A stretch of DNA of 64,000 nucleotides from Minutocellus sp. GHC0000111 (GCA_977018835.1 OZ361258.1:4588001-4652000); one strand, 5' to 3'; numbered from the stretch's first letter, positions 2,318 through 26,508 are shown. Translations and numbers: made by a program. Notes: a model not told the origin generated them from the letters alone.

Positions 2318-2441
2318 GGTAATGATATGATGTATTGGAGTATCAATCTTGTACTTTTCCTTTGCCAGGCAAAGGAAGTTGTTGTCAGCAAGCAAGTCTA
2401 GTAGAAGTCAGATGCCGATCTGCCGATCGGTTGCGCTCATT

Positions 2442-5033
2442 CACAGCCCCATCTCGTCTTGTTTCGCCGGTCGGATGAAGCGTTTTTCGGCAGAAGACGA
2501 ACACGTCACGAAGAAACCCACCAAAACCCAATCTCGTTCGTCACCCATTCTTTGACCGTCCAACACCATGGTGGTCCGTCGGCGTTGCGCCGGCGTATAA
2601 CTATATTTTCGTACCAAATACGCATTCATTATCATGTTTGGATATAGTTGAAGCGTACTGTATCCTCAGATTGGCCTCCGCTGCGTATCAACGCCACGAA
2701 CCATCGGCCCACTTTTCCTCCATCTGTCGGCCGTTCGTTTCTCTGGGGTGGTACCATTGCTCCGTCTTTGTGCTCGTCGTGCTCCCGTTGTGATGCCCCA
2801 GACCCTCTGGTACTTTCCCACGTTGTTGTTGATGATAAACTGCCGGGATTGCGCCGCACCCCCCGTATGACCGACTCTCGCTGATCCCGACCGATCGCAT
2901 CCCCACTCGACCTCCCGGAATTCCGACAATAATTTTGCGCCCGAGAGGAGACAGATAGTGTTGGGATAAGTTTATGCAACAATCAACCCGACAAAGGGAC
3001 TTTTTGGTCTGGGAGATAAATGGGTGAGTTAAGAAGGACGTGATGTGTTTGTTTGGGTGTACTGTTTACTTTTTTGCTCAATCGCGATGCTGTTTGTAAA
3101 AGTTGGACTATGCAATTCATTTGTTGTTGTGTAGTAGCAGTGCAATTTCATTTTCTAATTTTATACATGCCCTGCTCCCATCTCTACATCCTCATCTCCA
3201 TCGGTGGCCATCATGATCATTTGTTGGCGCTTGTCATCAGTTTCTGCTTTAACAGCTTCGGTCCTTTTCCTTTTCCTTGTTCTTGCCACCCGAGAGTTTC
3301 GCTCCCGCCTCTCCTCGACCTTTGGATTGGATGCCCTCTCCTCAGCCTTGAACTGCGCCGTCTGTTGGGCCTCATATCCCTTGACGCCCTGAGTCCGACG
3401 ATCTTCCTTAACACCCTCTTGGTGGGCTCGCTCTACAAACGATTCGTCGAGCCAACAGATGCCGCCCCATCCATTCTTCACTAGCCAAATGTGTTGGTCC
3501 AAGATGTGATCTTCGAGTAAGTGCCACTTGGGCGTTGTGCTAATGCCGATTGCCCGTGCTTGCTTGAGGGCACTTGCAATCAATGCTTCAAGCTCTCTCA
3601 CAGCCTTCTTTGCCTCATCATCCCATTTCATGTGCCATTTCAGAAACCTGGAATATGTTGCGTCAAGAGTGTGGAGCAAATTAGAGCAAGCTTTGCAGAG
3701 CTCTTTGATGTCGTCATCCGTCATGCCATCTTCCTCGCGATTGTGCTCTAGGAGAGTTCCTTTGGTGGAGGTGTTGTGGTGGATGAACTCTATTGTCCTT
3801 GGTTTCTTCTTGTTGTTGCCATCAGAAATATTAACAGATAAAGCTCTCCAGCATTCTGCCAGCACTGCCCTTATTTTACCTGAGTCGGCAGCCTCAATGC
3901 CGGCCTTTTTCAGGAAATGGAAGTGAGGGGCATCGTCATCCTCGGCATCATCGACAGCTCCCATCTCTGGCTCGCCATCACCGTGCTTCTGACGATGCTT
4001 CTCAAAGTGCTGCTGCATGCATGCTTCATGTGTAGCGTCCTCTCTTGCAATATCAGCTTCGTCCTCATAACAGGGCACATAGTCCTCGTCTTCGTCGTCA
4101 TCGTCCTCACTGATCTCGCCGGCCTCCGTCGTGGTCAGGGTGCCCACCGTCCCAACATCGTCGTCATTGTCCCACCCATCGTCCTGGCCATTGTGCCCAC
4201 CAGGGAACTTCTGGGCCTCGAGCAACATCTGCCTGTTGATTTCGTAGTCCATCGCCGCATATCCCACCGATGCATGTGGTGCGACCGACTTGAGGAATGC
4301 ATTGCATGCCTTCGTCAAATTGAGCCGCGGCGGCGGTGTTTCGAGGCGAAATTGTTGCGCTCGACCGTGACCATGTCGAAAGCCATCCATCCATCATCAT
4401 GGAGAGCGTCGGCTGCACGAGGATTGATGGAGCCGAGGCGAACAAACATGCTCTTTTTGTATGGGGTTCGCTGAACGTCGTCGGCAAGGCAGTGTCTTGA
4501 TGCCATTTCATCCCATCCATTCTGGTTGTCTGTCCTCACAAAAAACACATCGCAGTCTTCGTGTTTCTTCTTCTTCAAACCCAAGATGCCCGCAGTGTGC
4601 ATGACGGCGCCGTACATGATGGGACTGCATCCCAACACATTCATCAAGGAGTCGTTGTTGTTGCCGATGAAAAATTGTAGTAATGAAGTTCCTTTCTGCG
4701 AAGACGGACGAGCAGTTCAGCAAGGGCGTCCTGCACCGCAATTCTGTCTGCGGTGTTGACCGCGGGATTGCGGCCGTTATTTTTTTTGCTCATGGAGAAT
4801 TATGGATCGAGACCAACGGGAATATCACCAGGATGTCGGGAGTACCTGGTTGGTCTCGTGCCGTAATTCTCCCACACCAGCGCGAGATATCGCCTTCGTT
4901 CTGCACGTAGCGGCGGCAATTTGAATTTTTGCCGCCATGGTGGCTCGCGCCGGTGGATTGCTTCGCGCGCCGGCCGGCCACCGAAAGTGCGACCAAAAGT
5001 ATGCGAGTCATCCGGCTGGCAGATGGTGCTGTG
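2442..5033 (-). mobile_element. 2592-bp non-autonomous DNA transposon (Chapaev/Transib-like), copy 1
   Basis: Termini CACAGCCCCATCT...AGATGGTGCTGTG (13-bp imperfect TIR). Near-identical inverted copy at 23852-26450. Flanks are CATT (left) and AGAA (right). Confidence 0.9.
3161..4390 (-). CDS. Truncated transposase, C-terminal Chapaev/RAG1-like HxxxxH...ExxxERxHQ region (409 aa)
   Basis: TPKWHLLEDH...GICWLDESFVERAHQEGVKEDRRTQG resembles the Chapaev SxKxHxLxxH...DExGERFHQ...RYQG and RAG1 TNYFHKTLAH...SEGNE segments. No N-terminal catalytic D/D region is recognisable. Confidence 0.7.
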   Translation of the reverse strand: MDGFRHGHGRAQQFRLETPPPRLNLTKACNAFLKSVAPHASVGYAAMDYEINRQMLLEAQKFPGGHNGQDDGWDNDDDVGTVGTLTTTEAGEISEDDDDEDEDYVPCYEDEADIAREDATHEACMQQHFEKHRQKHGDGEPEMGAVDDAEDDDAPHFHFLKKAGIEAADSGKIRAVLAECWRALSVNISDGNNKKKPRTIEFIHHNTSTKGTLLEHNREEDGMTDDDIKELCKACSNLLHTLDATYSRFLKWHMKWDDEAKKAVRELEALIASALKQARAIGISTTPKWHLLEDHILDQHIWLVKNGWGGICWLDESFVERAHQEGVKEDRRTQGVKGYEAQQTAQFKAEERASNPKVEERRERNSRVARTRKRKRTEAVKAETDDKRQQMIMMATDGDEDVEMGAGHV

Positions 5034-5302
5034 AGAATGGTATCAGATCATCAGCGATGAATTTCGGGGTATTAATACCTCCACCTGTCCTAAAAAATAC
5101 CCGGAAGCTAAACTAGCAGATAGAGCCTGACCTCAGCTCACACACCGACCGGCCGGGGAGGAAACAACAACCTTCTCACAGTAGATCTAGATCTACCGGT
5201 ACCCGGTACCAGTACGAGTAGCTCTACATCTACCCTACATTTAGGTCCATTAGGAATTCCTACCATAAAGGATTTCACTCAATCATTCCTCTTGCTACAT
5301 GT

Positions 5303-8300
5303 CTAAATCTTAAAATCGCCTGCTCCGATGGTGGAGGAGGTGGTAGTGGCCACGGAAGCAGCAGTTGCGGTGCCCTTCATTTCCTTGCACTTCCGAAGAG
5401 CTCCCCACTTTTCGTATGCCTCAAAGGCATTGTTGTACTGGACGCTAGCCGCCAGGGTTTCTCCAGACGACAAAAGGAAGTCGCTGTATCGCTCGCAAAT
5501 GAGGGCCTCCTCGTTTACAAAGCGATGCTCTCTTGCTAGGCGGATTGCCTTCTCATACTCTCCGGCAGCTCCGACTTGATCACCCGCATTCGCCATCTGC
5601 TCGGCCTTGAGCAACGATAGTTTATGCTCGAAGTTCCAAGCCGATGACAATTTCCACTTCTCCACTCTAGCGAGAGATGTGTTGATGATACTACCCCACT
5701 TGGAATTTGTGGGATCTTTCCTCGCCATTGACAGACCTGCAAGGCCGCCGTAAAATGAGAATATCGAGACAGTGAATCTGCCCATCAAATTCTTGTCAAG
5801 TTCGGCTTCTATACATTGATCGTACATTTCGGCTGCAAATTCATCGCGGCCGAATGTGTAGGCAAGCACCATCCTCAGCAAGTAATATTGGCAAACTGAA
5901 GTTTGCATCCCCCGCTCAATTTGTTGCCTGAGAAATGCGTCGCCTTGGATCACGCTACCCTCAAGGACCGTTGGATCTCCTGAGCCCGACTTGCCAGCGA
6001 GGATCTCAGCGCATTGCCACAGAGGAAACGCAACAGCTGTTACCAGATCCATCTTATATTGCTTGCACTCGTTTCCTAGCTCTGATAGATCCTTCACGAT
6101 GCTGTCGAGAGGCTGCCCGCACTGAAAACAGTTCATGGCGTAAATCATCATCGTCATCAAGGCATATTCTGGATCACCAGTTTCGATGGCAGCATTACGG
6201 CCATCAATCAGAGGTGAAAGAGTGGACTGAACAGGTTCGACCCATACGTTGATGCAGCTGTAAAGTGAAACATTGATCCGAGCCAACAACTCTCGCGCAT
6301 TCAGCTTTTCAACGATAGCCGCCGAAATTTTGCCAACTCGATAACCCTCGGCAAAGTTGCTTAAAAATCCGCTACAGATTACTCCGTGTGCTGAAAAAGC
6401 CGTTGCGCTTTCTTTGCACAACCCATACTGCATTGTCAGGTGAACCATCCGGCATACAACCAGGGGCAACTTCAGCACATCATTGCAATAAAGATAAAGA
6501 ATCAACAAATTCAGAAACTTCATCGTGTTGAGAACATGACTGTCCGTCATCATGTTTTGCGACATGAACCATTCCATGTCCTTGGTTTCCAGTATATTCT
6601 GAGTACGTACAACTTCTTGCATCGCCATTGTTCGGCTGACTTCCTCCTCAAAGGGCTCCCCAAGTTGATTCAAAACTTCAAAGCAGGTGCTGATGGCCGC
6701 CTTAAGGTCGTTCTGTGCGGCGCAAGCACTAGCCAGCGTGTAATATGCTCGGAGCTTATCTTTGAAAGATTGTGCTTGAGTGAAGACTTCATTTAGGACA
6801 ATAGTCATCTCCTCGTAGTTACCAGTAACATATTCAATTTCAGATAGACTTGTGTAGATGTCAAGACACAGGCTGTAGTTGTCTCTCCAATCATTATCGT
6901 CGAGATATATGAGCGCAGACCGAAGATAGATGGCAGCCGGAAGAAAAGCGGAGGAAGCAATAGCACTCTTCGCCGCTTGGAGATTCAATTGTGCGGTGTA
7001 CACCTTTTCGAACGCATTTGTAATCAATTCGGATCCTCGATTCAATTGCCCGACGCAAGTAAATAGCAAGTCTGCTTCCAACCCTTCAGTGGACAATGTG
7101 GCCTTTAAAAGACTCCGACCAAGCTGCAAATGGAACGATGGTCGGTCACTAGCACTGACAAGCGAGTAAGCGGCCTGCTGGATCTGGTCGTGGCTGAATC
7201 GATACGTAGACCCTACCTTCATCAATAGGCCTTCATCTACCGGGCGGCGCAAAAGAGCAGTCAGGCCGTTCTCTGCCGCCAGCCCGAGGCCTTGACTAAG
7301 TAATTCTAGCGTCAATGCTTGAGTCTGAGCTCCCATGCACGCAGCAACCTTGACACTCCACATTTCTGTAGCACCAAGCCTGAGCAGCTTCCTCAACATC
7401 AGATCTACTACGTTGGATTTGATTTCAAGAGCTGCAATGGCGTCATCATCCCACTCCCAACGCCGAGCACTTGCGGAGTATCGCAGCAAATTTTGACGGT
7501 GCAAGTCAGAGAGCAGCTCAACGACAAAGAGGCAATTTCCACTCGTCTTGGAGTATACTGCATCCGAAAGAGGCCGCGTCAACAAGGGTGACAACTTGAG
7601 GGTGTCGGATATTAGAGCATTGATACTGCTTTTGTCCATGCTGCTCAGCTCGATATTGAGCAATTGGACCCCGACGCCTTGAATCTGCGAAAGCTGGGGA
7701 AGGAGAGGATGGTCCTGATCAACCTCATTGCTCCGGTAGGAACCTACAAACATTAATGATCGCATTCCACTTGCACAAACAATCTCTCGGATTAAATCAA
7801 GGCTCATTGCATCGGCCCACTGTAGATCGTCGATGAAGAGAATCACGGGATGAGAGGGTGTGGCAATAGCGCTGAAGAGTCTTCGGAAGAGGTAAATTAA
7901 ACGATTCAATGCCTTCGAATCAATCTCAACATCGCCTTCTTCTTGCATTTGTCCGGCGCTTGATTGCTTCCTTTGCATATTGATGCTTTCGTCAACTATC
8001 GTCGGAACTATTCTGCGCAGATTGGGAATGAGCCTTGTAATCGCGTCGGTATCATCTCCAATGGCATTTTTAATGGCTTGGATTGTATCCATATTAGGCC
8101 CGGGGAGTAAAGCCAAATCATCGCAGAAGGCGTCCAAAGCTTGCACAACTGCCAACAGAGGTTTCGTTTGGCGAAGTGTGTCGAATTTACCGGATATGAA
8201 GTAGCCGCCCTGTTCAACTGTAGGTTGGCGGAGCTGTTGGATCAGGACTGTCTTTCCGATGCCGGAATAACCAGACACGGTCACCACCTCTGTGCGTCCT

Positions 8301-9920
8301 CCCTTCCGAATAGCCCTTTCAAACACAGACATTAGAAGTGCTGTGTCCTCATCTCGCCCGTACAATTTACCTTGAGAAAATTCGAGCCGGCTTCCAGGTT
8401 GCCCCCATCGGCATCGCGCTTCGGGTGCATCGCTGTCCTCAATGTCGTAGAGATAACGATCAGGATCGTCCACCATTAACTGGACATCAATGATGAAATC
8501 ATCAATTTCTTTGCTGTGGTCTAATGTATTTTGCACGTTCATCAACGACTTTACCAGATCATCAATCGCTACCGGTAGCCCAAGATCTCGGAGAGGGATG
8601 CAATCATTGTCCGTAGATATTGCCGTAGATGCCCGCCCACGCTTCTTCTTCGTTTGTGCATCTGGGATATCTTCCTCATCTGTGTCTGCATCGACAACAG
8701 CTGCAAGTGAATCGAAGAGGTCCGCATCTTCTTGATTCTGGAACGGTGGAATTCCAGAGAATAGCTCGTATAATACTGCACCGACGCTCACAAGATCAGC
8801 CCTGATGGTGTCGTCAAATGATTCCGAGGAGTGATGTGGGGGCTCAGGGTTGGTGTCTTTGAAGGCAATGCAGTACCCCGCTTCTTCACCAGCTGCACCC
8901 CCGGGAACCTTCGAGACACAAAGAGTCTCCGTGCCAATCACACCATTACCAAAGATCGTGCCGTTCTGGTGGTATAGTCGGACCGTCTGTAGCAGCCTTA
9001 ATGCCAACTTGGCCGCCTCGAGCTGGTAGTGCCGGTCAGCCTCTTGTACCTGACTGCCGTGCAGAGACATGGCCCGGATCATTTCGCCACTGATCCAGTC
9101 CTTCAGAGAGACCGCTCCTCTGGTTTGATCGAGAGAGAATGTGTCCGGCGAGATCGATTCTTGGGTCAGGGTGGGTGACTGCCCCCAGCCAACGACCTGC
9201 ACCGAGTCCGATGCAAGGCCGTCGAATGCATCCGGCGGATACTGTTGAACCAAGATGTTGCCATTCGCGCAGGGACCATTGCTCTTCCACCCCCAGCCAA
9301 ACCCAACATGCTGATGCAATCGGAGACGGGTCCCGATCCGTCTGACATGGTATATTCCTGCTGGTCGCCAGCCGCGCGACCGACCGAGCTGTTGCAAGTC
9401 ACACCACTTGCCCCGACTCTGATCATCGCACTTCCATTATCTACGGTGCTTCCCTTCCGATCAGATTTGCCATTGCTGCTCATATTGCCCCCGCCGGTCT
9501 TCCTCTTGAGATGGTGCTCCCCCATCCGTATCTTGTCGATGTACTTGACGTCCTTCTCCCTCAAACTTTGCTTGGCCCGCTCCAGCATCGTCGCCTCGTC
9601 GCCTCGTCGACCGGCACCCACACGTCGGCCGCGGATCTGTCATCGCCAAATCCCCACCGCGCCGCCTGCTCCTTGGTGGCTCGCTTCAGAAATCGTCCGG
9701 GAGGATCCAACCCGGTCCGTATGTGCCGACATATCTCCCGGGCAATTTCGTTCTTGCGGGCCTTGTCACCACCGCCGCACGACATGTACTCGTCCTTCCG
9801 GGAGGCGATGAGGTTGCGAAAGTTCTCGTTGCCGGGGTTCGTCACGATGCCGGCTCCCCGACCGCACAGGACGTCGTGTCGGTTGATTTGATCGGCCGTG
9901 ATGTACTCGAAGCTTTCCAT
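5303..9920 (-). pseudogene. DUF6824 + degenerate kinase-like + COG3899-type AAA ATPase + helical-repeat protein; 5' part frameshifted
   Basis: DVLCGRG..NPGNENFR..GRFLK (DUF6824, 9561-9920). An 8-bp duplication at 9593-9608 and a second frame change near 9290. The main ORF 5303-9397 has YGRDEDTALL, Walker A GYSGIGKT and Walker B ILFIDDLQWAD. Confidence 0.7.
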
Positions 9921-10115
9921 GGGTGCTGAGGATGGTTGTGCTGGTTTCTTCTTGTTCTTCTCTTTGTTGTTAGCTTTGGTGCTGGTGCTGGTTGGTCGTC
10001 GTTGTTGTTATTGGCTGTGCCTACGCCTTCTGATGCTTGTGTCGGAGCCGACGAAAGGCCAGAAGCGGTAGCGCTAACGCCGCCATGATTATCAACGCCA
10101 TCGGTATGGGCACCG

Positions 10116-10253
10116 GCGGCGATGATAGCGCCGATGGCAAAAAGCACATACCAATTGGTACATGTAGTGTTATTGGTACAATTGTTATTTGATACACGTA
10201 GGAGCGGCGGCTCGGCTCATCGGCCATGTTGATGTAGTCGAAAACGAGGCCTA
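10116..10253. repeat. 138-bp direct repeat, copy A
   Basis: gcggcgatga...aaaacgaggccta matches 12040-12177 with a few substitutions. Confidence 0.9.
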
Positions 10254-10292
10254 GGAATTCCTACTACTCAACACATTATATAAATCATTATT

Positions 10293-10530
10293 GACTCTGT
10301 GTGCCTTTCCCGATCCCTGCGGCTCCTGATACGAGTAATCCGTGTACGATCGCAAGGCCAAGCCTCATGTTTTACATGTAGGCCCCATTTTGACTGGAAA
10401 AGAACGGGCTGCGCGGAAATCGACTCTGTGTGCCTTTCCCTGCTGATGATAATCCGTGTACGATCGCAAGCCTCATGTTTTATTTGTAGGCCCCATTTTT
10501 TTGGAAAAGAACGGGCTGCGCGGAAATCGA
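10293..10530. repeat. Imperfect tandem duplication (units about 129 and 109 bp)
   Basis: gactctgtgtgcctttccc...ggaaaagaacgggctgcgcggaaatc starts at 10293 and again at 10422. Confidence 0.85.
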
Positions 10531-10909
10531 TCCAGAGGTACTGCATGCCGTGCCATCCCACACACATTTTGCCGGGATGGTGCACTTCGCCATGAACCGA
10601 GATGTATGCCTGGTGGTGCCGCGATCTGTTGTTGCTTGTTCGTCCTGTTTTCCTGCGTTGTATTTTATTGTAGCATTGTAGGCCTACCTAGGTACAGTCA
10701 TCGGAGTCGCCAGCACTTCGCCGAGAACGAGACCATGACACATAAAGTCCTAAAAGCAAAAAAAAAAACACTACAAATCTACACCCGAATCAATCAATCA
10801 GTCATCGAGGGTACCTAATCAAGTGGTGGCACAGATCACAAATGTGTCAGATCTGCAGCGAAGATGGGGGGCCTACATGTAGATCTAAGCCGACGAATCG
10901 GCCTTCCGG

Positions 10910-11503
10910 ATGGCACTAGGCGGCGCGCCCGAGAACGGTGGGTCGGACACGGCAGACCAAAGTCCGAGGCCGAGGCCGTCGGACCAAGCAGGTGTAGAAC
11001 TAATGTGCCTAGCCGGAACCCGAGAGCCACAGAGGCATCGGGTGGTGGCTCTCTCGGACAATTGTGTAAGGCAGGCCGAGGCGACCTTTCACGTGCCCGC
11101 AGGTGGCAGAGCAGTCTCTGTTCCACTTGTTGTTGGCGAGATGAGAGGCCAATGCTCGGAGTCGTCTCCGAAAACAATGGCGCCGCCACCTGAAGAAGGC
11201 GGCGCCTCTTCGGCAAGCTTCGTCCAAGCATGTCAAGAGGCAAGTGATGTGGCCAGAAATGCACGCCGAAAGGAATTACGCCTTCTCTTCCGTCCTCACA
11301 AGAAGGAGCATCACTACATGGCCTTTGCAACGGCAATCAACGAATTAGCTGAACAAGAAGACAGCGCGGATAGCGATGTCGACAGTCACGACAACGACGA
11401 AACACTGGCGATTGAACTCTCCCTCTTGAGGAACATTGCAACACTGCTTCGTCCAAGGAAAGCAGAAAAACACTTTCTCTACACGGGGAGGGACATTCTG
11501 TAA
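10910..11503 (+). CDS. Hypothetical protein or gene remnant between the 138-bp repeats
   Basis: 197-aa ORF with a helical/acidic segment; downstream frames are interrupted by stops. Confidence 0.25.
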   Translation: MALGGAPENGGSDTADQSPRPRPSDQAGVELMCLAGTREPQRHRVVALSDNCVRQAEATFHVPAGGRAVSVPLVVGEMRGQCSESSPKTMAPPPEEGGASSASFVQACQEASDVARNARRKELRLLFRPHKKEHHYMAFATAINELAEQEDSADSDVDSHDNDETLAIELSLLRNIATLLRPRKAEKHFLYTGRDIL

Positions 11504-12039
11504 ATTGCAAACAACATTGAGCGTGCGCAGCATTTAAGTGCTGAATAAGTCAGAAAGGATGCATTAGAACATCTATTGCATAAGAAAGCTCGATTCGGCG
11601 CACTCTAAAACAATTCATCCACGGCATGCGTAGTAGATGATGACTGTGTGAAAAAGAACATTTAATAACCACATCTCCATGGCATTGTGATAATTAATCT
11701 AGTCAGCCTCGATGGGCCAAATCTCCGGCTTTTTCATGGGATGAAAAGTAAACAGAGGGTGATGGATTGGTTCAACATCTTTGGGTAGCTCAAAAATGGG
11801 TGCAAGACACAGGGGCTGAGAGACTTCGCCAAGTTTGCCACCATTTCTGCCACCTTTGCCACCCCCAGCGGCGCTGCCATGTTCGGACGCCCCTGCCTTC
11901 CCATCGTCGAGGTCGCACTGGGCTTCGACGGCTTCAACGAGATGCTGGCCAATAGATTCCGTCGTGATTTCCTCCCTGTCGACTATGGTGATTCATTCTC
12001 AAGTCGGGATGGCATGCGCAACGAACCGTTGTGTTCCAT

Positions 12040-12177
12040 GCGGCGATGACAGCGCCGATGGCAAAAAGCACATGCCAATTGGCACATGTAGTGTTATTGG
12101 TACCATTGTTATTTTATACACGTAGGAGCGGCGGCTCGGCTCATCGGCCATGTTGATGTTGTCGAAAACGAGGCCTA
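12040..12177. repeat. 138-bp direct repeat, copy B
   Basis: Matches 10116-10253. Confidence 0.9.
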
Positions 12178-12642
12178 CTAGTAGCTAGGAATTCCTGCTA
12201 CGGGTAGCTACGTAGAAGTGCAGGCCTACAGCACTGTAGCCAAAAGCCACTTCGATCGAACGAGTCCACTACGATTTAACACTTGAGTCGAGCCAGTCCA
12301 TTCATTCTCTACTTTCAGCATTCGGATAATATTAGAAACATCAGGGAAGGAAAGGAGCAAAAGGGGAAAAACCAACTCTCCATGGGCTTCCACCGTCATC
12401 CTCCGGCCCAGCGAGCACCGCCTCCATCGCGTATCTTGACCGAAGCCCGCTACGGCAACACATCTTGTGCTGTTGAAGGTTGCAAGATAGATCTACCAGC
12501 AGCCCACCGCGGAGCATCCCTTTGTTAGCGCTCTTTCATTCTTTGCGTACCAGGCGCCAATAACCAAAGCGGAAGGGCGCACGAAGTATTAGTAATCGGC
12601 GCAAATCTCGAAGTAAACAACCCCAAACGCCAACTCAAAATT

Positions 12643-15600: not shown

Positions 15601-16244
15601 AGGAAAAGAAGCGTGTTGAGACTGTCACTCTCTCCACGACGGCCAAGAACAAGGCCAGGCTGGCCCGTAAGAAGGCCGAAGAGGATGGCACCGACGCCAT
15701 GGATGTCGACGAAAAGAAGGAGGAGTCCAAGGAGGGTGAAGAGAAGAAGGAGGACGGCGACAAGATGGACGTTGATGGTGAGGATGGCGAGAAGAAGCCC
15801 GAGAAGAAGAAGCGTGAGCCGGAGCCCACCTCCTTCCGCATCTCCAACCCCTCGCGTATCACCAAGGCTCAGGCGGAGCTCTGTGCATTCGATCTGAGCC
15901 AGCGATACCGTCCCATCCTTCCTGAGGAGAGGGTCAGTGGTGTTATCATGCTCACCGACTCGACTCCGGGCGAGGAGGAGGACCTCGGTGCCGTCAAGCC
16001 TCCGTCGATGGAGGTTGAGGGTGAGGCCGATCCGCCTGAACCTTTCGAGTGGGCCCCGCCTGGTCACGATGACTACCGCGAGGGTCTTCCTCCTCCTCCC
16101 ATTCCCGAGCCGGAGGAGAAGAAGGATGAGGATTCCGATGACAAGGAGGATGAAGAGGGATCCAAACCCAAGAAGCGCGAGGAGGATCACGAGGAGGATC
16201 TCGGCGGACCAGGCCTCGTTGGAGGCGCGGCCGAGTCCTCGTAG
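12643..16244 (+). CDS. RPN2: 26S proteasome regulatory subunit RPN2/PSMD1; 2 exons (intron 14073-14230)
   Basis: NAGTTNDSFLRDNLDW..SNW|AKFSATASLGVIH, YAEGGSLYALGLIH, ETQHEKIIRG, SDVSDDVR, ESFNPHVRY and IDAGGRN. The GT-AG intron joins the frames. Confidence 0.97.
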
Positions 16245-16351
16245 ATGCCAAAAGATATAGTAGCGGGCTAATTTGATCTGATCATATCATGTATAAAATG
16301 TAGTAGCGTGAGCGTTTCGCGCGAGTTACAATGGTGTCTTATTGCCTCTAG

Positions 16352-19083
16352 CTAGCGAGCAGGACGCCGATTTCCCAAGACTTTGGTGCTGAAAGGCATT
16401 GTTTGCCTACCTCTTCCAGCAATGAGGGAGAACCACGAGAACGAAACAGCGTCGGCAGGCGACATTTTAGCAAAAGTAGAGGATACAGGAACAGCTATGT
16501 ACCTGGACGCGGAAGCAGAGGACGCCGGTATCATCCTATAATTCTTGTCCAAAAGTTGAGCTTTCTCTAACTCGTTCTTCAGTTCCTTGGCCTTTGGCTT
16601 TTCGACATACGCCACATCTGTTATAGATTCCTTGGTGCTTCACGCTGGTAGCTTCGAAGATGCGCTTGGTGCTGTTGCTTTCGTTCCCAGTCCACTGATA
16701 TTTCCTCGGGGGCTGTTGCGACGAGTTGGATGGAAAGTTACGTGGTAGCTTTCCGCAAAGCTCGGCCCAAATGCGAATGAAGATATCCCGCCTCCAGCCA
16801 AAAGAATACTTGGCGGATTGCTTTCGAGAGAAATGCAAGTGTGCCTGACAAGCGACCCCACATCTATTTTGTCAGATGTGCCGCCGTCAATGAGGCGACA
16901 TTTGACTGGTATTGCCTCCAATCTTAGTTTGTTGCCCTCCACCTTTGCTCGACAAAGGCTCAATGCCGAAGTCGTGGTGTTAGGAGTGCTTGGAACACCG
17001 CCGCTGACGACCATAAGCGAACTTGATTGAGATCCATCTTCTATGCAGCACCCAGATGAAGCAATCCTTGCTAGTTGGTCATCTTCTACCATACCATGGG
17101 AAAGCGTAGTTATTGAGTGATTGCTCCTCTCAAGATCAAGTGTGAGTAGCATACTAGTAGGTGTAGTAATTGGCGCATTGCCATTGGCGTCCAATACGTC
17201 AGAAGAAAAAAAAAGATTGGCAGGATCACCGTTTCCTCCAAAAATATAAACGAGTTCTTGGTTGTGATCGGTCTCCGGCTGTGATAGTCGTACAGAGACA
17301 TGTTGAAAGAGACTAACTTCGCCTTTCACTGTTTCCCAAAGAAAGTGGCAGTGAGATATACCGCCTCTTGCTCCTTCATAGCCAGGAGGGGTCACGCTTA
17401 GAACATGACACGTCGGTACAATTCCCTTGGTAGTACGACCACCGCAAAGCACGGCAAGGCGACCATTCTTCCCTGACAATGCCGTTAATGTATGGCCCCA
17501 CCGAGCAGCAGGCGGCTCTCCGCGTACATCGGTCGGTCTCCAAAACATGTCTTCTCGGTATCCATCCTTTGTATAGACCAAAAGTTCGTTTGACGGTTGC
17601 GCAGGACTTCCTCTTCCACCAAAAATAGCCACTAACATTGCACGCATATTGAAGAGCGTTTCACGTATGTCAGAGTAGTGGTCGCTGCGCCTCAGTTGAT
17701 CCCGATCGAAATCAAACGCAGGTAGCAAGCACGCCGCGAGACCCTCCCGTGCGCCAAGAGTCGCATGCTGCAAGAGAATGTTGTTGATCACCGAGGTCTC
17801 GAATCGATCTGGCAACGGACCAGCCATTGCCGGAATTCGTTCCCACCCGCGGCCCGGGTCGCCGTCGCTGGACCACCGGCCGTATGCGTGTTCTATGTGA
17901 TACACTGCGTCGGATCGTTTGGCGCCTTCGCCGCTATGTGGGCCCATCCCGTACCTAGGTATCCTCCGAAGACGTCAATTTCAACATCGTTGGCGCTACT
18001 CGTGTGTAGCTTCGGCGTTTTTACCGCGGCGTGTCCCCACAGACCCAGCTTGGGCAACGGTTCAAAGATGGCTTCGTATTCTTCCACACTCGTTTCAACA
18101 GAGCCATTATTGTTTGCTTTGCCGTCACCTCCGTATCCTGTCGTGCTCTTGGGGACAAACAACTCCCCCTCCACCAGCTCATAGAACCTCCTCAGCTTGT
18201 TCTCATTCGCCACAAAGCGTTGGTTGGCCTCCCACACCAGCGCCACCACATAGTCGTCAGTGGGCCGCAGCGCCCCCCTCCGGCCCAACGGCACGGTCAG
18301 ACCCAGCCCAACTCCCCGTATCGCCACGGTCACCCGCTTGGGCGTCGATACGATCCCGCTCTCGCGAAATCCCAGCGCCAATGCCAGCGACAGAAGCTTC
18401 TCGGCACGGAGCAGGGTGGAGGCCGCCACGTGCAGCAGGAGGGGCTCGTGCTTGAACATGAGCGTCGGTGGTGCATCTGCACATGTTTCTTCCGCTGCAT
18501 CGGTATCAGCAGTGCCTGGTAGATTGTCATTGAGTATATCAATCAATTGCTGCGGATCGATCTGCCCGTGCGACGACAGCGCCCACCGGCCGCTGCCCTT
18601 GCCGCTGCTGGTCGCGTTGTCTCGTTCCGGTGCACTTGGTTCTGCATCAACAGCACCACTGGTGTCTTCATTCGAATTGTTTGCGTCGGCCTCGGCCTCA
18701 GCATCTAAATCTGCCGTACTAGAAGTGGCCGACGGGTCAAACAACGCAATCCGTCCGCTGCAGCTGCTCAGCGTGGCGTAGGCGGGGTGGGCATTGAGCA
18801 GATCCACCAGCGGTCGGATGGCCTCGTCGACGCTTCCTTTAGGACTCTTGTCTATAAATAGTTGGAGCGGATGATGATGGCCGGATTGGATCCCATAGAG
18901 GGCACGGAGGGTCTTGGCCCGGATGTCCCGGAAGGAGGGGAGGAGGACCGTGCCGGGGTCGTCGAGGTAGTTGTGCTGCAGGGCGAGGTTGAGATGCTGA
19001 GGGCGGTGGCTGCGGCTGGAAGGAGAGGAAGAAGAAGAGCCTGACCCTGCCGCTGCGTCCATTTCCTGCTGCTGGTCGCTCAT
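16352..19083 (-). pseudogene. TYW3: tRNA wybutosine-synthesis TYW3 + kelch fusion (TYW2/3/4-like), disrupted
   Basis: DKSPKGSVDEAI..TLSSCSGRI, FKHEPLLLHV and GFRESG (TYW3); kelch ARWGHT/LCGG/IFGG. An 8-bp insertion at 17951-17958 and an in-frame TGA at 16640-16642. Confidence 0.8.
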
Positions 19084-19134
19084 CTTGCCCGTGGACTTGC
19101 CTCCCACCTCTGCCTTTTTCATTGAGCAAGGGCA

Positions 19135-19200
19135 GCACGAGAGCACGAGAGCACGAGATGTGCAGAGTGCAGAGTTGCAGAGTGCAGGCAGAGTGCAGAG
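19135..19200. repeat. Short tandem motifs (GCACGAGA)3 and (GTGCAGA)n in the divergent TYW3/VPS60 intergenic region
   Basis: Read directly from the sequence. Confidence 0.7.
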
Positions 19201-19665
19201 CCGTTCGGCCATTTTCAGAAATTTCTTCTGTCCGTCGACCGTCCATTTTTTCTGTCCGTCTTCCGCAGTCCCGATAAAACGAAGGAAACCAAGACTGGAC
19301 AATGAACAATCTTGCCTTTTGCCTCTTGCCTCGTCGTTTGCGTTCTCAACATCACACATCTTGTGGAAAGGTAAGCAAGGAAGAAGTTTAGAGCCTAGCA
19401 TGGCGGTTTCCCGGCCGGGCCTTCGGTGGTGTATTTTTGTGTTGGTTTTCGTGCTGGGGGATTTGCCGATCTTCATCTCCATGCCGGTGAACTCGCCGTG
19501 TGCGGAAAGATGGGCAATCGATCGCAAGATACCAATTATTCCCTCCCACGACCCCGCCCTCATGAGCATTTATGCCATTATCTCACCAATTCAATCTATG
19601 CTTCTTCATGTCACCGACTGTATCATCTTCTTGGCACGTATCAAATACAAACCCAACCCAACAGC

Positions 19666-20322
19666 ATGAATCGAGTATACGGAAAGAAGAAGGCACCGGG
19701 ACCGCCGGCCCCATCGCTCGGCGAGGCCTCCGAGGGGATGGACAAGCGCGGCGGCGGCATCGACAACAAGATCGCCTCCCTCGACAAGGAGCTCAAAGGG
19801 TACAAGGACAAGCTCAAGACGACCAAGAATCCCGCGGCCAAGAAGCAGATCCAAAAGCGCGCCATGGACGTCCTCAAGCGCAAGCGAATGTACGAGAAGC
19901 AGCGCGATCAGGTCATGGCCCAGCAGTTCAACGTCGATCAGGCCCAGTTCAACATTGAAAGTGCCAAGGCGACGGTGTCGACGGTCGCGGCTATGAAGCA
20001 GGCCAATACCGAGCTCAAGGGCATGATGAAGAAGGAGCTGAACATTGACGACGTCGATGACATTACCGACGATTTGGCCGACCTCATGTACGATATGGAT
20101 GAAATCAACGAAGCGTTGGGACAGAACTTTGCCACCCCCGAGGATATCGACGAGGCCGATTTGGAGGCCGAGCTGGACATGCTGGATGATGAGCTGGAGG
20201 AAGAGCTGGCCGAGACGGAGACGCCGTCGTATTTGCAAGAGCCGCAGCTGCCGGCGCAACCGACCGGATTGCCCGGGGTGAAGGCCCCGGCCGAGGGAGA
20301 GGAGGAGGCGTTGAATGCATAG
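19666..20322 (+). CDS. VPS60: ESCRT-III Snf7-family protein Vps60/CHMP5
   Basis: MNRVYGKKK..PAPSL, KRAMDVLKRKRMYEKQRDQ..QQFNVDQ, EINEALG and DEADLEAEL. Confidence 0.9.
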   Translation: MNRVYGKKKAPGPPAPSLGEASEGMDKRGGGIDNKIASLDKELKGYKDKLKTTKNPAAKKQIQKRAMDVLKRKRMYEKQRDQVMAQQFNVDQAQFNIESAKATVSTVAAMKQANTELKGMMKKELNIDDVDDITDDLADLMYDMDEINEALGQNFATPEDIDEADLEAELDMLDDELEEELAETETPSYLQEPQLPAQPTGLPGVKAPAEGEEEALNA

Positions 20323-20453
20323 GGTGCTGGTTTCGTACACAGGTGGAGACCTACTACTACAATTTACATTTACGATAGAGCAATTGGCAATTGAAGACAT
20401 GTGTTCAACATGATTTCTTTGTACGCTTTGCTCAGCATTCATAACCTTGGTCT

Positions 20454-23400
20454 CTAAGCACAGAGGCCATCGCTTCCGCAAACAATCTTGCCGGTGCCTG
20501 CTCCCAATAGAGTTATACCAGGGACAGAGTTGTCGACAGTGTAAGTGTAGCTCGGCAGCTCAACCAGATCTCCAACGTCGATGTTGGCATGACAATTTCC
20601 TGCAGGGCTATTAGTGTACACATTATTCCGTTCGGCGGCATTTCCGGGCTGTCCCGGTGGATTCCCACTATAAACTCCAACGCATGTGTCAATGGGATCC
20701 TCTACATTGTCAAAGTAGTTGCCCTCGACGAGAACATATGCTCCCATGGCACTGCCAATGGCATAGGATTCCACATTCTCATAGTAGTTGTTGTAAACGT
20801 GGACAAGCCTGGAGAATCGCACTCTTGGCATTCGCTGGTCGCAGTCGACAAATCGATTGTGATGCAAGGTAATGTGGAGATCGTCCTCGTCGCCCACTTC
20901 ACCATTATCGGACCCGATTAGCATTGCCCTGAAGTCATTGTTGTCGTTATTATCAGGCACAACTTCATAATCATTGAAAGTGTTCCAAGAAATGGTGATG
21001 TAGTCGGAGCCCTTCTTGATATCAAGAGCACCGTCGGTACCTGGCGCTGGTTTGGAGAACGAGCAGTGGTCGATCCAGATGCACTCGGCTCCATCTTGGA
21101 TACCGATTCCATCGAAACCATCGGGGGCATTTTCGATGTTGATGTTGCGGATGATGATGTTCCTATCCTTGGCAGAAAATTTGTTTCCATCGATTCGAAG
21201 CTCGGCGCCCGAGAAACCGGACCTAGCCCCGAGCCCCAAGATGGATTTGTCGGAGGCGATCCGGTAGAAGGGCTTATCGTTGCAAAAGGTAGCACCACTG
21301 GTACAAGTGGGTGGAGGGCCTAGCATGCCGTTGACCAGGATTATATACTTTCCGTCTCTCTTTGCGTAATCGTAGAAGCTTTCTTCGTCGCCGACGCTCA
21401 CTGTGACAGCTTGGCCACCTTGGCCACCGGTAGTCCCGCTCGTTTCACAGTGGTTGCCGGTGGTAATTCCAGCAAATCCCACGAGATCGTAGTTGAGAAC
21501 GTAGTTGGGCACAATCGTAAATTCCACCCGGTCGGGATCCGTTACCATATTGACAACTCCATCGTCTCGCTTGAGCTTCATCTTGGCATTCAGGTCATCA
21601 CCAAGCGAGGCGGTAACTGATGCTAGGGGAATCTCAAAATACCAAGAGTCTGTGGCGGGGTCAAATTCCAAGTCTGGCTTAGCTTCTCTATCCCCATTGA
21701 CTTTGATTTCAATATTGTAATCCCTGACAATATCATTGAAGTCGTTGTGAATAGTGGGGTCGTTAGGATCATAAGACGGGTCGGTGACATCAAGGTCAAT
21801 AAGAAAATCCTTGTTCCACATAGCTCCCCAAAGGATGGTGTTCTCGGGCACTTCACAAGAGCTGGGGCATTCATCGCACGACGCCCCAACGTCCGCCGGT
21901 GTACCACAGAGAATGATTGGTTCGCTATCTTCCGTCTCTTTATATCCCAACACATAGCCTTCATCTCCCTCGCCAACAAAGGTATCTTGGATTTCAGTTG
22001 GTTTGGGACTTGGCGCCTTGCTCGGGGATCCAGATGGAGTTCTCGAGGGCTAGATATAGTTTAATAATGAAACAAAACAAATGAAAAAAGAGCCGTCTAT
22101 GATGAGCAGGCGATGCATTATATACGTAGTGCCACACATGGCGGAATATCGCTTGGAAGAATTCGTTTGACGTACCGTTTGAGTGGGGTAGGCCGATGGA
22201 CGAGGCGAATTGCTCGGCGACGGCAATGCTTTGGGCGTGGCTCAGAGGAAGGTAAGTACGAAGGAAAAGACGACGGGATATCGGTCGGTTGTTTCGTTGG
22301 TGGTCTAGAGGGCTGTCGAGTGAATAAACGTCCAACGAAGTGTGAGAAAAAAAAGGAAACAAGATGACGACGTCCGATTCTTACAATTAAAATAGAAACA
22401 AAGGTACCATCCCAGCACAAGATTAAATCGCCTGGCTCACCATCTGAGAGGGATTGACCGACGGCTGGGGCAATTTACTCGGCGCAGGGGATGATTCAAA
22501 CGTGGGTGGGTTCGATGGTTCCGAGGATGGCAAACCTTAGCGATGAATGGCGGTCGTGTTCAAGAAATGCGGGAAAGAGATTATATTAGCAACGGTATCA
22601 GAATAAATCAGCTATCACAGGCAGACCGACACACATTAATACTCTCACCTGAAGGGAAGAAAGACGGGACATCGCTCGGATTATGAGAAGGAGATCTAGA
22701 AAGGGTCGGTTCCATTGAGGGTTCTCTGCTTGGGAGTGAGGAGGGTCTATCAGATGGCTCCGAAGTCAGAGGAGGTGGAGGAGGCGGAGCTTCATCGATA
22801 ATTGTAAGCTCGAATCTGTCTGTCTGCAGCTTCTCTCTATCCTCGTCTTCGATTTTTTGCTTTGCAGTAATGATCCAATTTTGCCAATCATCCTGGGAAA
22901 TCACGTTAGAATCACTACCAAGATCGACCTCAAAGCTCCAAATCGAAGCTCCAAATGGCTCCTGGCTGTTGCCCTCGAATTTCATGGAACCTTTGGCAAC
23001 TCTGTCTCGGTCGTTCTTCACCTCATATTCCGTCTTCTTCAAGTTGGAATCGGTTGGCCCGTAGACACCGTTCCACCAAATCAAACCACGTAGGATTGCC
23101 GTACGAGGCACCTCGCCCGAATCCGGGCAGTTGTCATCACAGTCACCATCCTGACAGATGATTTTGTAATTGGTCATCGATGGGCCATAGGCGAGAAGAT
23201 ATCTGGAATCAGAACCCTCGGCCAGCTGCACCTGTTGTGACTGTTGTGACCTCCTCGTTCTCTTGCTGCTGCTGATCGTCTGGTGATGGGTTAAAAAGTC
23301 GAGACGATTTCGGTGGGTTGAAGAGACCACCACGGCGTCGTGCTTGGAGTTCTCGGGCGTCAATGGTCGAAGGAGATTCAACGTGTGCACTCTTGGCAAT

Positions 23401-23556
23401 AATCTGATCGCGGCTTTCGTCGACCAGAACACTTATGTCCTTCGGCGAGACATGCGCCCCATCGTGATCTGCCGATGGACTTCGAAGATTAATGTTGTCG
23501 TTGGCGCGGGAAGTGGCAGCCAACAGCGTCGAGCACATCAAGTGAACGAGCTTCAT
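20454..23556 (-). CDS. Secreted multi-exon protein: signal peptide, two related Cys-containing modules, Pro/Ser-rich linkers, C-terminal PL1 pectate lyase; probable frameshift near 23250
   Basis: GFA..TTGG.GG..VTV, WIDHCSF, DGALDIKKGSDYITISWN, ITLHHNRF..QRMPRVRF and HVYNNYY (20454-21953). Upstream PSxxPS exons and an MKLVHLMCSTLLAAT leader. Internal exon boundaries are approximate. Confidence 0.75.
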
Positions 23557-23851
23557 GTTGCGCGCATGGTACAATTCTTGTGAGATGACGAGGACGAGAG
23601 AACAACAAGCCGATAATTCTTCACGTGAAAAGCCCCTCGAGCGTTGAAGATGACGCGCACTGCTGCGAAGTTAATCATCTGCCTCTCATCCGCATCAGCA
23701 GGCAAGGTTGGGCCACCCGCCAAAGTTTTTTACAGAAGATGCCCGATGTCCATCTATCTTGACGAGAACAAGCAGGAACAAGGTGGGCAGGCTCGGAACG
23801 GAAGATTGAGTCACCCTATCCAACTTTTCGGTGATTAAAAGATACTCAATG

Positions 23852-26450
23852 CACTGCACCATCTGCCAGCCGGATGACTCGCATGCTTTTGGTCGCACTT
23901 TCGGTGGCCGGCCGGCGCGCGAAGCAACCGACCGGCGCGCCCAACGCGAGCCACCATGGCGGCAAAAATTCAAATTGCCGCCGCTACGTGCAGAACGAAG
24001 GCGACATCTCGCGCTGGTGTGGGAGAGTTACGGCACGAGACCAACCAGGTACTCCCGACATCCTGGTGACATTCCCGTTGGTCTCGATCCACAATTCTCC
24101 ATGAGCAAAAAAAACAACGGCCGCAATCCCGCGGTCAACACCGACCGCAGCAGACAGAATTGCGGTGCAGGACGCCCTGGCTGAACTGCTCGTCCGTCTT
24201 CGCAGAAAGGAACTTCATCACTACAATTTCATCGGCAACAACGACTCCTTGATGAATGTGTTGGGATGCAGTCCCATCATGTACGGCGCCGTCATGCACA
24301 CTGCGGGCATCTTGGGTTTGAAGAAGAAGAAACACGAAGACTGCGATGTGTTTTTTGTGAGGACAGACAACCAGAATGGATGGGATGAAATGGCATCAAG
24401 ACACTGCCTTGCCGACGACGTTCAGCGAACCCCATACAAAAAGAGCATGTTTGTTCGCCTCGGCTCCATCAATCCTCGTGCAGCCGACGCTCTCCATGAT
24501 GATGGATGGATGGCTTTCGACATGGTCACGGTCGAGCGCAACAATTTCGCCTCGAAACACCGCCGCCGCGGCTCAATTTGACGAAGGCATGCAATGCATT
24601 CCTCAAGTCGGTCGCACCACATGCATCGGTGGGATATGCGGCGATGGACTACGAAATCAACAGGCAGATGTTGCTCGAGGCCCAGAAGTTCCCTGGTGGG
24701 CACAATGGCCAGGACGATGGGTGGGACAATGACGACGATGTTGGGACGGTGGGCACCCTGACCACGACGGAGGCCGGCGAGATCAGTGAGGACGATGACG
24801 ACGAAGACGAGGACTATGTGCCCTGTTATGAGGACGAAGCTGATATTGCAAGAGAGGACGCTACACATGAAGCATGCATGCAGCAGCACTTTGAGAAGCA
24901 TCGTCAGAAGCACGGTGATGGCGAGCCAGAGATGGGAGCTGTCGATGATGCCGAGGATGACGATGCCCCTCACTTCCATTTCCTGAAAAAGGCCGGCATT
25001 GAGGCTGCCGACTCAGGTAAAATAAGGGCAGTGCTGGCAGAATGCTGGAGAGCTTTATCTGTTAATATTTCTGATGGCAACAACAAGAAGAAACCAAGGA
25101 CAATAGAGTTCATCCACCACAACACCTCCACCAAAGGAACTCTCCTAGAGCACAATCGCGAGGAAGATGGCATGACGGATGACGACATCAAAGAGCTCTG
25201 CAAAGCTTGCTCTAATTTGCTCCACACTCTTGACGCAACATATTCCAGGTTTCTGAAATGGCACATGAAATGGGATGATGAGGCAAAGAAGGCTGTGAGA
25301 GAGCTTGAAGCATTGATTGCAAGTGCCCTCAAGCAAGCACGGGCAATCGGCATTAGCACAACGCCCAAGTGGCACTTACTCGAAGATCACATCTTGGACC
25401 AACACATTTGGCTAGTGAAGAATGGATGGGGCGGCATCTGTTGGCTCGACGAATCGTTTGTAGAGCGAGCCCACCAAGAGGGTGTTAAGGAAGATCGTCG
25501 GACTCAGGGCGTCAAGGGATATGAGGCCCAACAGACGGCGCAGTTCAAGGCTGAGGAGAGGGCATCCAATCCAAAGGTCGAGGAGAGGCGGGAGCGAAAC
25601 TCTCGGGTGGCAAGAACAAGGAAAAGGACCGAAGCTGTTAAAGCAGAAACTGATGACAAGCGCCAACAAATGATCATGATGGCCACCGATGGAGATGAGG
25701 ATGTAGAGATGGGAGCAGGGCATGTATAAAATTAGAAAATGAAATTACACTGCTACTACACAATAGCAAATGAATTGCATGATCCAACTTTTACAAACAG
25801 CATCGCGATTGAGCAAAAAAGTAAATAGTACACCCAAACAAACACATCACGTCCTTCTTAACTCACCCATTTATCTCCCAGACCAAAAAGTCCCTTTGTC
25901 GGGTTGATTGTTGCATAAACTTATCCCAATGCTGTCTGTCTCTCCTCGGGCGCAAAATTATTGTCGGAATTCCGGGAGGTCGAGTGGGGATGCGATCGGT
26001 CGGGATCAGCGAGAGTCGGTCATACGGGGGGTGCGGCGCAATCCCGGCAGTTTATCATCAACAACAACGTGGGAAAGTACCAGAGGGTCTGGGGCATCAC
26101 AACGGGAGCACGACGAGCACAAAGACGGAGCAATGGTGCCACCCCCCAGAGAAACGAACGGCCGACAGATGGAGGAAAAGTGGGCCGATGGTTCGTGGCG
26201 TTGATACGCAGCGGAGGCCAATCTGAGGATACAGTAAGCTTCAACTATGTCCAAACATGATAATGAATGCGTATTTGGTACGAAAATATAGTTATACGCC
26301 GGCGCAACGCCGACGGACCACCATGGTGTTGGACGGTCAAAGAATGGGTGACGAACGAGATTGGGTTTTGGTGGGTTTCTTCGTGACGTGTTCGTCTTCT
26401 GCCGAAAAACGCTTCATCCGACTGGCGAAACAAGACGAGATGGGGCTGTG
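23852..26450 (+). mobile_element. 2599-bp non-autonomous DNA transposon (Chapaev/Transib-like), copy 2, inverted relative to copy 1
   Basis: Termini CACTGCACCATCT...AGATGGGGCTGTG. Flanks are AATG (left) and TTCT (right). Confidence 0.9.
24506..25729 (+). CDS. Truncated Chapaev/RAG1-like transposase C-terminal region (407 aa)
   Basis: Identical to 3161-4390 apart from a 2-aa indel. The upstream ORF 24165-24581 is probably a frameshifted N-terminal part. Confidence 0.7.
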   Translation: MDGFRHGHGRAQQFRLETPPPRLNLTKACNAFLKSVAPHASVGYAAMDYEINRQMLLEAQKFPGGHNGQDDGWDNDDDVGTVGTLTTTEAGEISEDDDDEDEDYVPCYEDEADIAREDATHEACMQQHFEKHRQKHGDGEPEMGAVDDAEDDDAPHFHFLKKAGIEAADSGKIRAVLAECWRALSVNISDGNNKKKPRTIEFIHHNTSTKGTLLEHNREEDGMTDDDIKELCKACSNLLHTLDATYSRFLKWHMKWDDEAKKAVRELEALIASALKQARAIGISTTPKWHLLEDHILDQHIWLVKNGWGGICWLDESFVERAHQEGVKEDRRTQGVKGYEAQQTAQFKAEERASNPKVEERRERNSRVARTRKRTEAVKAETDDKRQQMIMMATDGDEDVEMGAGHV

Positions 26451-26508
26451 TTCTGACAGAAGACAGCACAACACCCTCCAAGAGGAAAGGATAGCGCCCC
26501 CCGCCATC

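Follow-up and report, generated by a model that had tools for sequence, protein, structure and literature searches.

The locus described here raises the question of whether the ends of a protist DNA transposon can follow the spacing plan of the recombination signal sequences (RSSs) used in V(D)J recombination. The window, by which we mean the whole analysed stretch of 64,000 nucleotides from Minutocellus sp. GHC0000111 (GCA_977018835.1 OZ361258.1:4588001-4652000), contains two copies, A and B, of one DNA transposon of ~2.6 kb, inverted relative to one another. An earlier note on this DNA had described ends in which two conserved blocks lie 11 bp further apart at one terminus than at the other, together with a RAG1/Chapaev-like transposase. 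Re-reading of all four ends confirmed their coordinates and sequence, and we find that the difference in spacing recurs among related elements whose boxes are otherwise different.

Every end, aligned in element orientation, consists of two blocks of 13 bp each, one terminal and one inner, the latter reading GCCRGYCGGATGA. In the 5' (short) end the two blocks abut and the inner one occupies positions 14-26; in the 3' (long) end 11 nt intervene and it occupies positions 25-37. The terminal blocks of the two ends of one copy are identical at 11-12 of 13 positions, as are the inner blocks, and an inner-block match this good at any offset has a shuffle p of 0.002. A search of the window with the pattern CACWGCNCCATCT, one mismatch being allowed, returned five matches, four of which are these ends (0.64 expected; none of 100 shuffles reached five). 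Subterminal repeat arrays are ruled out as the origin of the inner match, as the complete inner block is present only once at each end. The 11-bp offset is therefore as first described, and it holds wherever the box is said to begin. The accompanying caution that the label 12/23 hinges on where the box starts is justified for the window, where the shared block begins at position 14 and relatives alone set the box; end variation in the window's own family is known from two copies only.

At least 52 related loci were collected in a metagenome scan covering 595 of about 750 stretches, and an end-finding rule that used the first 13 bases only gave candidate end pairs in 17 of the 52. The offset scan comprised 13 elements, namely 12 loci and copy B; L024 (a duplicate of L023) and the weak pairs L007, L017, L029 and L050 were dropped, and for L016 and L028 the second-ranked end pair was used by choice, the top pair of L028 ending inside the open reading frame (ORF). 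An inner block that is significant individually (p <= 0.016) was found in 6 of the 13 elements (the window, L001, L003, L008, L014 and L016, the last with its long end at 5'), and the size of the offset is 11 in all six. The best offset is 10 in L004, L019 and L028, each non-significant by itself. Among controls, 14% of cross-family and 12% of shuffled comparisons peak at 10-12. A choice-free test places the peak at 10-11 in 61% of 11 perfect terminal pairs, two of which are duplicates, versus 9% of 50 weaker pairs, and no such peak is shown by the four weak pairs that had been dropped. With one element for each of the six non-window lineages, the summed score at offset 10/11 is 54, whereas 3,000 shuffles give a mean of 20.5 and a maximum of 31, and adjacent offset pairs without 11 give 13-28. 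The window, L001, L003, L008, L016 and L019 are constant over six scan settings and L004 ties once, while L010, L023, L028, L045 and L047 are less stable. For the CACATTCG family, positions 20-28 of 12 short ends were made into a profile, which places all six long ends at offset 10, the spacer being variable in sequence and fixed in length; in the L008 family, a lone 5' end (L007) compared with a lone 3' end (L009) gives offset 11. The seven lineages, window included, are 22-29% identical in the transposase core and are spread across the tree (FastTree, midpoint root).

When the ends are shifted by their offsets, identity peaks at short-end positions 20-28 (6, 7, 5, 8, 9, 9, 9, 7 and 6 of nine families; position 18 has 8), a peak whose height is partly built in by the per-element choice of offset and whose position is not. 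The relatives therefore set the box at short-end positions 20-28, the place taken by the nonamer in an RSS, with 30-39 as its place in the long end. Its sequence differs in every family and ranges from 33 to 78% A+T, in agreement with the earlier statement that it is not the RSS nonamer; only CAC is common to the nine end families, and between the two ends of one element the box matches at 6-9 of 9 positions. No symmetric inner box was found among the nine families with both ends, and the short end is at 5' and the long end at 3' in eight of them, weak L010 included. The offset is thus kept among relatives instead of varying at random, being 11 bp, or 10, in six additional deep lineages, and the RSS-like asymmetry suspected for this lineage is well supported as sequence geometry, from which we infer a requirement of the enzyme for a short/long pair.

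Full-length members of the transposase family were found in ENA assemblies (P0005 and P0008, 1,089 and 1,097 amino acids), as was P0001 (920 amino acids, 96% identical over the region searched). Across 33 aligned relatives, counted over the rows with the residue, D516 is conserved in 30 of 30, D615 in 31 of 31, C632 and C635 in 30 of 30 and H704 in 30 of 30; E1004 (25 of 25) and E1008 (24 of 24) are also invariant, and both are candidates for the catalytic glutamate. P0008 has the motif H978-x4-H983, and the CACATTCG family has H(3)H instead. The AlphaFold2 model of P0008 (mean predicted local distance difference test score, pLDDT, 72) matches RAG1 with E 2.8e-12, Z 22.0 and a root-mean-square deviation (rmsd) of 4.4 over 478 aligned residues, model residues 402-1055 lying on RAG1 459-1007. 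HzTransib (6pqx) follows with Z 20.4 and rmsd 4.2 over 435 residues and ProtoRAG with Z 19.8, and the first unrelated row has Z 10.2; identity in these structural alignments is 8-12%, and the PDB structural matches contained no Chapaev structure able to compete with RAG1. The full-length core is accordingly predicted to adopt the RAG1/Transib fold, so that the structure prediction called for earlier places the protein with the RAG1/Transib/Chapaev transposases. Look-alikes in the Atlas are unnamed animal proteins, one cluster with 12% DUF1280, and RAG1 clusters. By sequence, a search of the PDB gave no RAG1 or Transib, only coiled-coil noise, and a Pfam search of P0008, P0010 and P0011 gave no family. 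An antiparallel coiled coil of ~120 residues is predicted within the catalytic core (P0008 733-850), between the LH and YHGG motifs; RAG1 or HzTransib matches of comparable length leave it unaligned.

The L008 protein's first 387 residues were folded separately (pLDDT 85.6). RAG1 chains top the matches to this model, residues 262-373 lying on RAG1 395-508, which makes it plausible, by position, that a ~60-residue helical region is the equivalent of the RAG1 nonamer-binding domain (NBD). A homodimer prediction for residues 205-324, the putative box-binding region, scored 0.00 and counts neither way. The first ~180 residues (8-180 of the model) are well predicted and have no structural match above Z 4.6; this domain, in the place of the Chapa finger, is a second candidate reader of the inner box.

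We propose, with a probability of roughly 0.6, that the transposase pairs unlike ends, one short and one long, by analogy with RAG under the 12/23 rule. (Papers are cited by PMC or bioRxiv identifier.) In RAG, both nonamers are bound by a dimer of the NBD, whose pivoting accommodates 12 as well as 23 and so enforces the rule (PMC10629977), and ProtoRAG is more active with its own asymmetric end pair (PMC8289069). Here the short and the long end differ by one helical turn (11 bp). A transposase dimer would grip the terminal block of 11-14 bp with its catalytic core and cut at the CAC border, while its paired N-terminal module would read the family-specific inner box; with one turn added, the box would still lie on the same face of the helix, and a module that is tilted could accommodate a short and a long end together. 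Such pairing could favour excision of the whole element over 5'/5' or 3'/3' pairings amid many genomic copies, box and binding domain would diverge together while the geometry stays fixed, and deleted copies would be mobilised in trans; in the window, the segment between the copies may have been inverted by recombination.

Several observations weigh against short/long pairing or leave it less secure. Four of the 13 scanned elements are ambiguous when taken singly (ties in L010 and L047; in L023 and L045 another offset comes first and 10 is the runner-up), and L014 shifts to -26 in three of the six scan settings. The search suggested earlier for an autonomous copy succeeded for the protein, transposases of ~1,090 amino acids having been found, and not for the ends, no autonomous member of the window's own family having been seen with its ends. 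As for the NBD, the RAG1 459-508 domain by itself gives the same Z (7.6) as the longer L008 alignment, so that placing L008 262-323 onto RAG1 395-458 adds ~60 residues with Z unchanged and rmsd raised to 11-12, and the GRP motif (GRPR/K of the NBD) is absent in 13 of 13 proteins. The remaining points speak for helical phasing in the absence of a pairing rule, under which the box is a real binding site whose orientation around the helix has to be kept, spacers one turn apart both work, symmetric pairs would transpose too, and the short/long asymmetry is a tolerated or weakly favoured state. In most Transib families both ends are long (PMC1131882 section 9). The 12/23 requirement is lost when RAG1 acts in the absence of RAG2 (PMC4840297), and none of 12 related elements has a RAG2-like second gene, their 3' tails measuring 154-921 bp with a longest open stretch of 187 amino acids. 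L016 (96-4569) has its polarity reversed, with the long end at 5' and no target duplication, its end pair being less certain. We nevertheless hold phasing alone to be rather unlikely: free choice at each end should yield some symmetric families, yet none of the nine is symmetric, in lineages just 22-29% identical, and the summed score at offset 0 is 25, the background, versus 67 at +11.

It is improbable, in our estimate, that these elements are true Transibs (subgroup I) or RAG-like elements and their asymmetry the one already known. Such an assignment would agree with the top structural matches (RAG1, HzTransib and ProtoRAG), with the RAG1 clusters among the Atlas look-alikes, with the asymmetric ends of subgroup I Transibs and of the stramenopile AanRAGL from Aureococcus (PMC9435367), and with the variation in duplication length that can occur within Transib (bioRxiv 10.64898/2026.08.26.747230). 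Against it, a 5-bp duplication occurs in none of 14 elements (the two window copies and 12 loci); the 12 loci have 4 bp in one, 3 bp in five and none of at least 3 bp in six. The sole transposase family matched in Pfam is DUF1280 (PF06918), which is Chapaev (PMC3985635), and never RAG1; the matches are weak (3 of 33 relatives, best E 4.8e-6, and 3 of 51, one above the gathering score), P0008 having none. The low identity in the structural alignments and the lack of RAG2 point the same way. That the offset merely survives, as a neutral trace, from a single ancestral 11-bp indel, or is a chance similarity of ends, with no role in transposition, is very improbable and largely refuted: the difference is a clean 11-nt indel in the window taken alone and inner blocks are weak in several single elements, but boxes wholly different between lineages are matched at 6-9 of 9 positions within each element, the spacer is constant in length and variable in sequence, and no shuffle attains the observed score.

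In the window, the interval 2442-26450 is not a single element but two oppositely oriented copies with host genes separating them (Table 1). A 24-kb composite element is ruled out, since the outer flanks show no duplication and a long end lies at each outer border. Neither copy is flanked by a duplication of its own; the flanks match crosswise between A and B, and both 4-bp matches would arise by chance with a probability of about 1.6e-5. The crosswise flanks therefore indicate that the 18.8 kb between the copies were probably inverted by recombination through them, or else misassembled. Between A and B there are 26 substitutions, which all fall in the outermost ~370 and ~700 columns and leave the central ~1,540 unchanged, an identity that conversion at the crossover and collapse by the assembler fit equally. 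A contig from one of four read runs (X1) joins a 3' end to a 5' end (26450/23851) over four bases at about single-haplotype depth; it would be accounted for by two elements lying head to tail at another site of that genome, or by a circle formed on excision, and the four bases are compatible with a 4-bp target. The 4-bp duplications, which had been taken to place the element on the side of Chapaev and not of Transib/RAG, are thus present, but crosswise instead of around each copy.

Table 1. Features of the two transposon copies and of their surroundings; positions are those of the window.
Feature	Coordinates	Strand	Remarks
Copy A	2442..5033	-	2,592 bp; internally deleted, non-autonomous
A, AATG after 3' end	2438..2441	-	duplicates 23848-23851; crosswise 4-bp target duplication 1
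A long (3') end, terminal block	2442..2454	+	13 bp; starts CACAGCC
A long end, extra spacer	2455..2465	+	11 bp; absent from short end
A long end, inner block	2466..2478	+	end positions 25-37; CGGATGA at 31-37
A transposase remnant	3161..4793	-	frameshifted; deletion as in B, junction near 3749; open frame 3161-4393
A short (5') end, inner block	5008..5020	-	end positions 14-26; CGGATGA at 20-26
A short end, terminal block	5021..5033	-	starts CACAGCA
A, TTCT before 5' end	5034..5037	-	duplicates 26451-26454; crosswise 4-bp target duplication 2
Segment between copies	5034..23851	.	18.8 kb host DNA: AAA_16 protein, RPN2, TYW3-kelch, Snf7, pectate lyase
B, AATG before 5' end	23848..23851	+	crosswise duplication 1
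Copy B	23852..26450	+	2,599 bp; internally deleted, non-autonomous
B short (5') end, terminal block	23852..23864	+	starts CACTGCA
B short end, inner block	23865..23877	+	positions 14-26
B transposase remnant	24101..25729	+	frameshifts near 24143 and 24536; deletion junction near 25147
B long (3') end, inner block	26414..26426	-	positions 25-37
B long end, extra spacer	26427..26437	-	11 bp
B long end, terminal block	26438..26450	-	starts CACAGCC
B, TTCT after 3' end	26451..26454	+	crosswise duplication 2

Both copies lack residues 329-902 of the full-length protein (574 codons), a deletion that takes out the two catalytic aspartates, D516 and D615, and C632/C635; the remnant in B retains two motifs, H-x4-H at 25361-25390 and that of the glutamate at 25448-25477. 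The RAG1/Chapaev-like transposase attributed to the window is borne out as a predicted fold of the full-length protein, whereas the window itself holds remnants without this part. A 70-member cluster shares this deletion junction (P0013), so the deleted form itself was amplified, presumably in trans. Read depth on a single contig, 18,000-22,000 inside the element versus 110-230 in the flanks, suggests on the order of a hundred copies, depth being no copy number. Most differences among family copies (23852-26450) are transitions, with C>T and A>G frequently occurring as pairs at CA/TG, which we infer to reflect decay of methylated CG. Relatives of the transposase form 2,067 clusters at E <= 0.001; 2 of 20 clusters looked up carry a species name (Thalassiosira oceanica and T. 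exigua), which makes a diatom host probable, and a search of viral contigs and prokaryote genomes gave no relatives.

The genes of the host flanking sequence are eukaryotic. At 16643-19569 (-) a TYW3 domain is followed by kelch repeats with a weak RAG2 match in Pfam (E 0.016), an arrangement that we take to be the wybutosine-synthesis fusion gene of the host; the kelch ORF (16643-17974) is ruled out as RAG2-like, since it lies outside both copies and directly after the TYW3 domain. A direct repeat of 138 bp, 96% identical, is located at 10116-10253 and 12040-12177, 1,924 bp apart. A DnaJ gene, whose promoter may be affected, probably has its start codon 58 bp downstream of the end of copy B (26509 onward). 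Among the related elements, the 3' tail of one sub-lineage contains a second, convergent ORF of ~170-187 amino acids (L008 3422-3961 (-) and L003 4265-4825 (-); also L002, L007, L009, L011, L012, L021, L022 and L031), which is 26-66% identical between distinct loci, belongs to no Pfam family and is too short for RAG2; tblastn finds none in the window or in other lineages. The 3' tail of L016 has an unrelated open stretch of 168 amino acids on the minus strand.

Asymmetry of this kind is already known from five Transib families, subgroup I Transibs, AanRAGL and PflRAGL-A. We found no description of short/long ends in Chapaev-like or diatom elements in the literature within reach, which excluded Repbase Reports, Yuan and Wessler 2011 and figures, and the supplement of PMC9435367 holds no Chapaev, no diatom genus names and no motifs of this clade. 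The origin of the 12/23 rule is debated, being sought in Transib ends (PMC1131882), in RAGL-A ends (PMC10629977) or partly in RAG2 (PMC4840297). Because spacing and position are the same despite 8-12% identity to RAG1 in structural alignment, no RAG2 and lineage-specific boxes, our data suggest that 12/23-type geometry is inherent in the enzyme architecture that this clade and RAG1 share and is older than these models place it, or that it has arisen twice. More tentatively, and with the odds somewhat against it, a large, RAG2-less, Chapaev-like protist clade may obey an enforced 12/23-type pairing rule with V(D)J geometry and freely interchangeable boxes. If so, the pairing rule would predate the split between Chapaev and Transib/RAG and be independent of RAG2, and intact single-gene elements would supply orthogonal, direction-defined recombination ends. 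Intact single-ORF elements with both ends (L001, L003, L004, L008 and L014) make the pairing question approachable with one protein.

Among known systems, the CMCT clade comprises EnSpm/CACTA, Mirage, Chapaev, Transib, Plavaka, ESTA as well as Lanisha, and is defined by 5'-CA..TG-3' termini, a target duplication of 2-5 bp and a DDE transposase with C(2)C and H(3-4)H (PMC12730594). The present element has CAC..GTG ends with 4 bp duplicated crosswise in the window, and C(2)C and H(3-4)H lie between the second D and E of its transposase. Its grouping with CMC/Transib transposases, on which the earlier note depended, is backed by the predicted fold, and the tree holds only this clade. It is a CMCT-clade, Chapaev-like element and is not filed as Chapaev itself, because the N-terminal Chapa zinc finger is absent. 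Chapaev has CAC..GTG termini, a 3-4-bp target duplication and C(2)C, LH and H(4)H motifs (PMC4079192), all of which are shared here. Chapaev also has the N-terminal Chapa zinc-finger domain (PMC4411706; bioRxiv 10.64898/2026.01.24.700457), whereas no CxxC occurs within the first 330 residues of any of 13 proteins, which differ further in their length of ~1,000-1,200 amino acids and their long coiled-coil insertion. For Chapaev3, the published terminal inverted repeats are listed as short, 11-19 bp, with TWA targets (PMC3014272), and short/long ends were not found in print for Chapaev.

The Transib families Transib5, Transib2_AG and TransibN1-3_AG have RSS12-like 5' and RSS23-like 3' ends (PMC1131882). 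Like these, the present elements combine a single transposase of predicted RAG1 fold with CAC ends and a bipartite short 5'/long 3' arrangement; unlike Transib, whose consensus has a CACAATG heptamer and an A-rich nonamer (PMC1131882), they keep only CAC invariant, their box is family-specific, and their duplications, where present, are of 3-4 bp. From RAG1/2 and RAG-like elements they differ in having no RAG2-like gene, GRP motif, nonamer sequence or 5-bp duplication, and from the RSS in having a terminal block of 11-14 bp instead of a heptamer. With RAG, ProtoRAG, PflRAGL-A and AanRAGL they share the predicted core fold (Z 20-22). The ends of PflRAGL-A differ by 10 bp (PMC10629977), and those of AanRAGL consist of 13-bp and 10-bp elements with 4/13-bp spacers (PMC9435367). 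In the RSS the nonamer follows the heptamer and a 12-bp spacer (PMC1131882), and it is at the nonamer positions, 20-28 and 31-39, that the second conserved element of the present ends is found, with a length difference of 10-11 bp between short and long end; bipartite ends with the second element offset by about 11 bp are thus the 12/23-type geometry.

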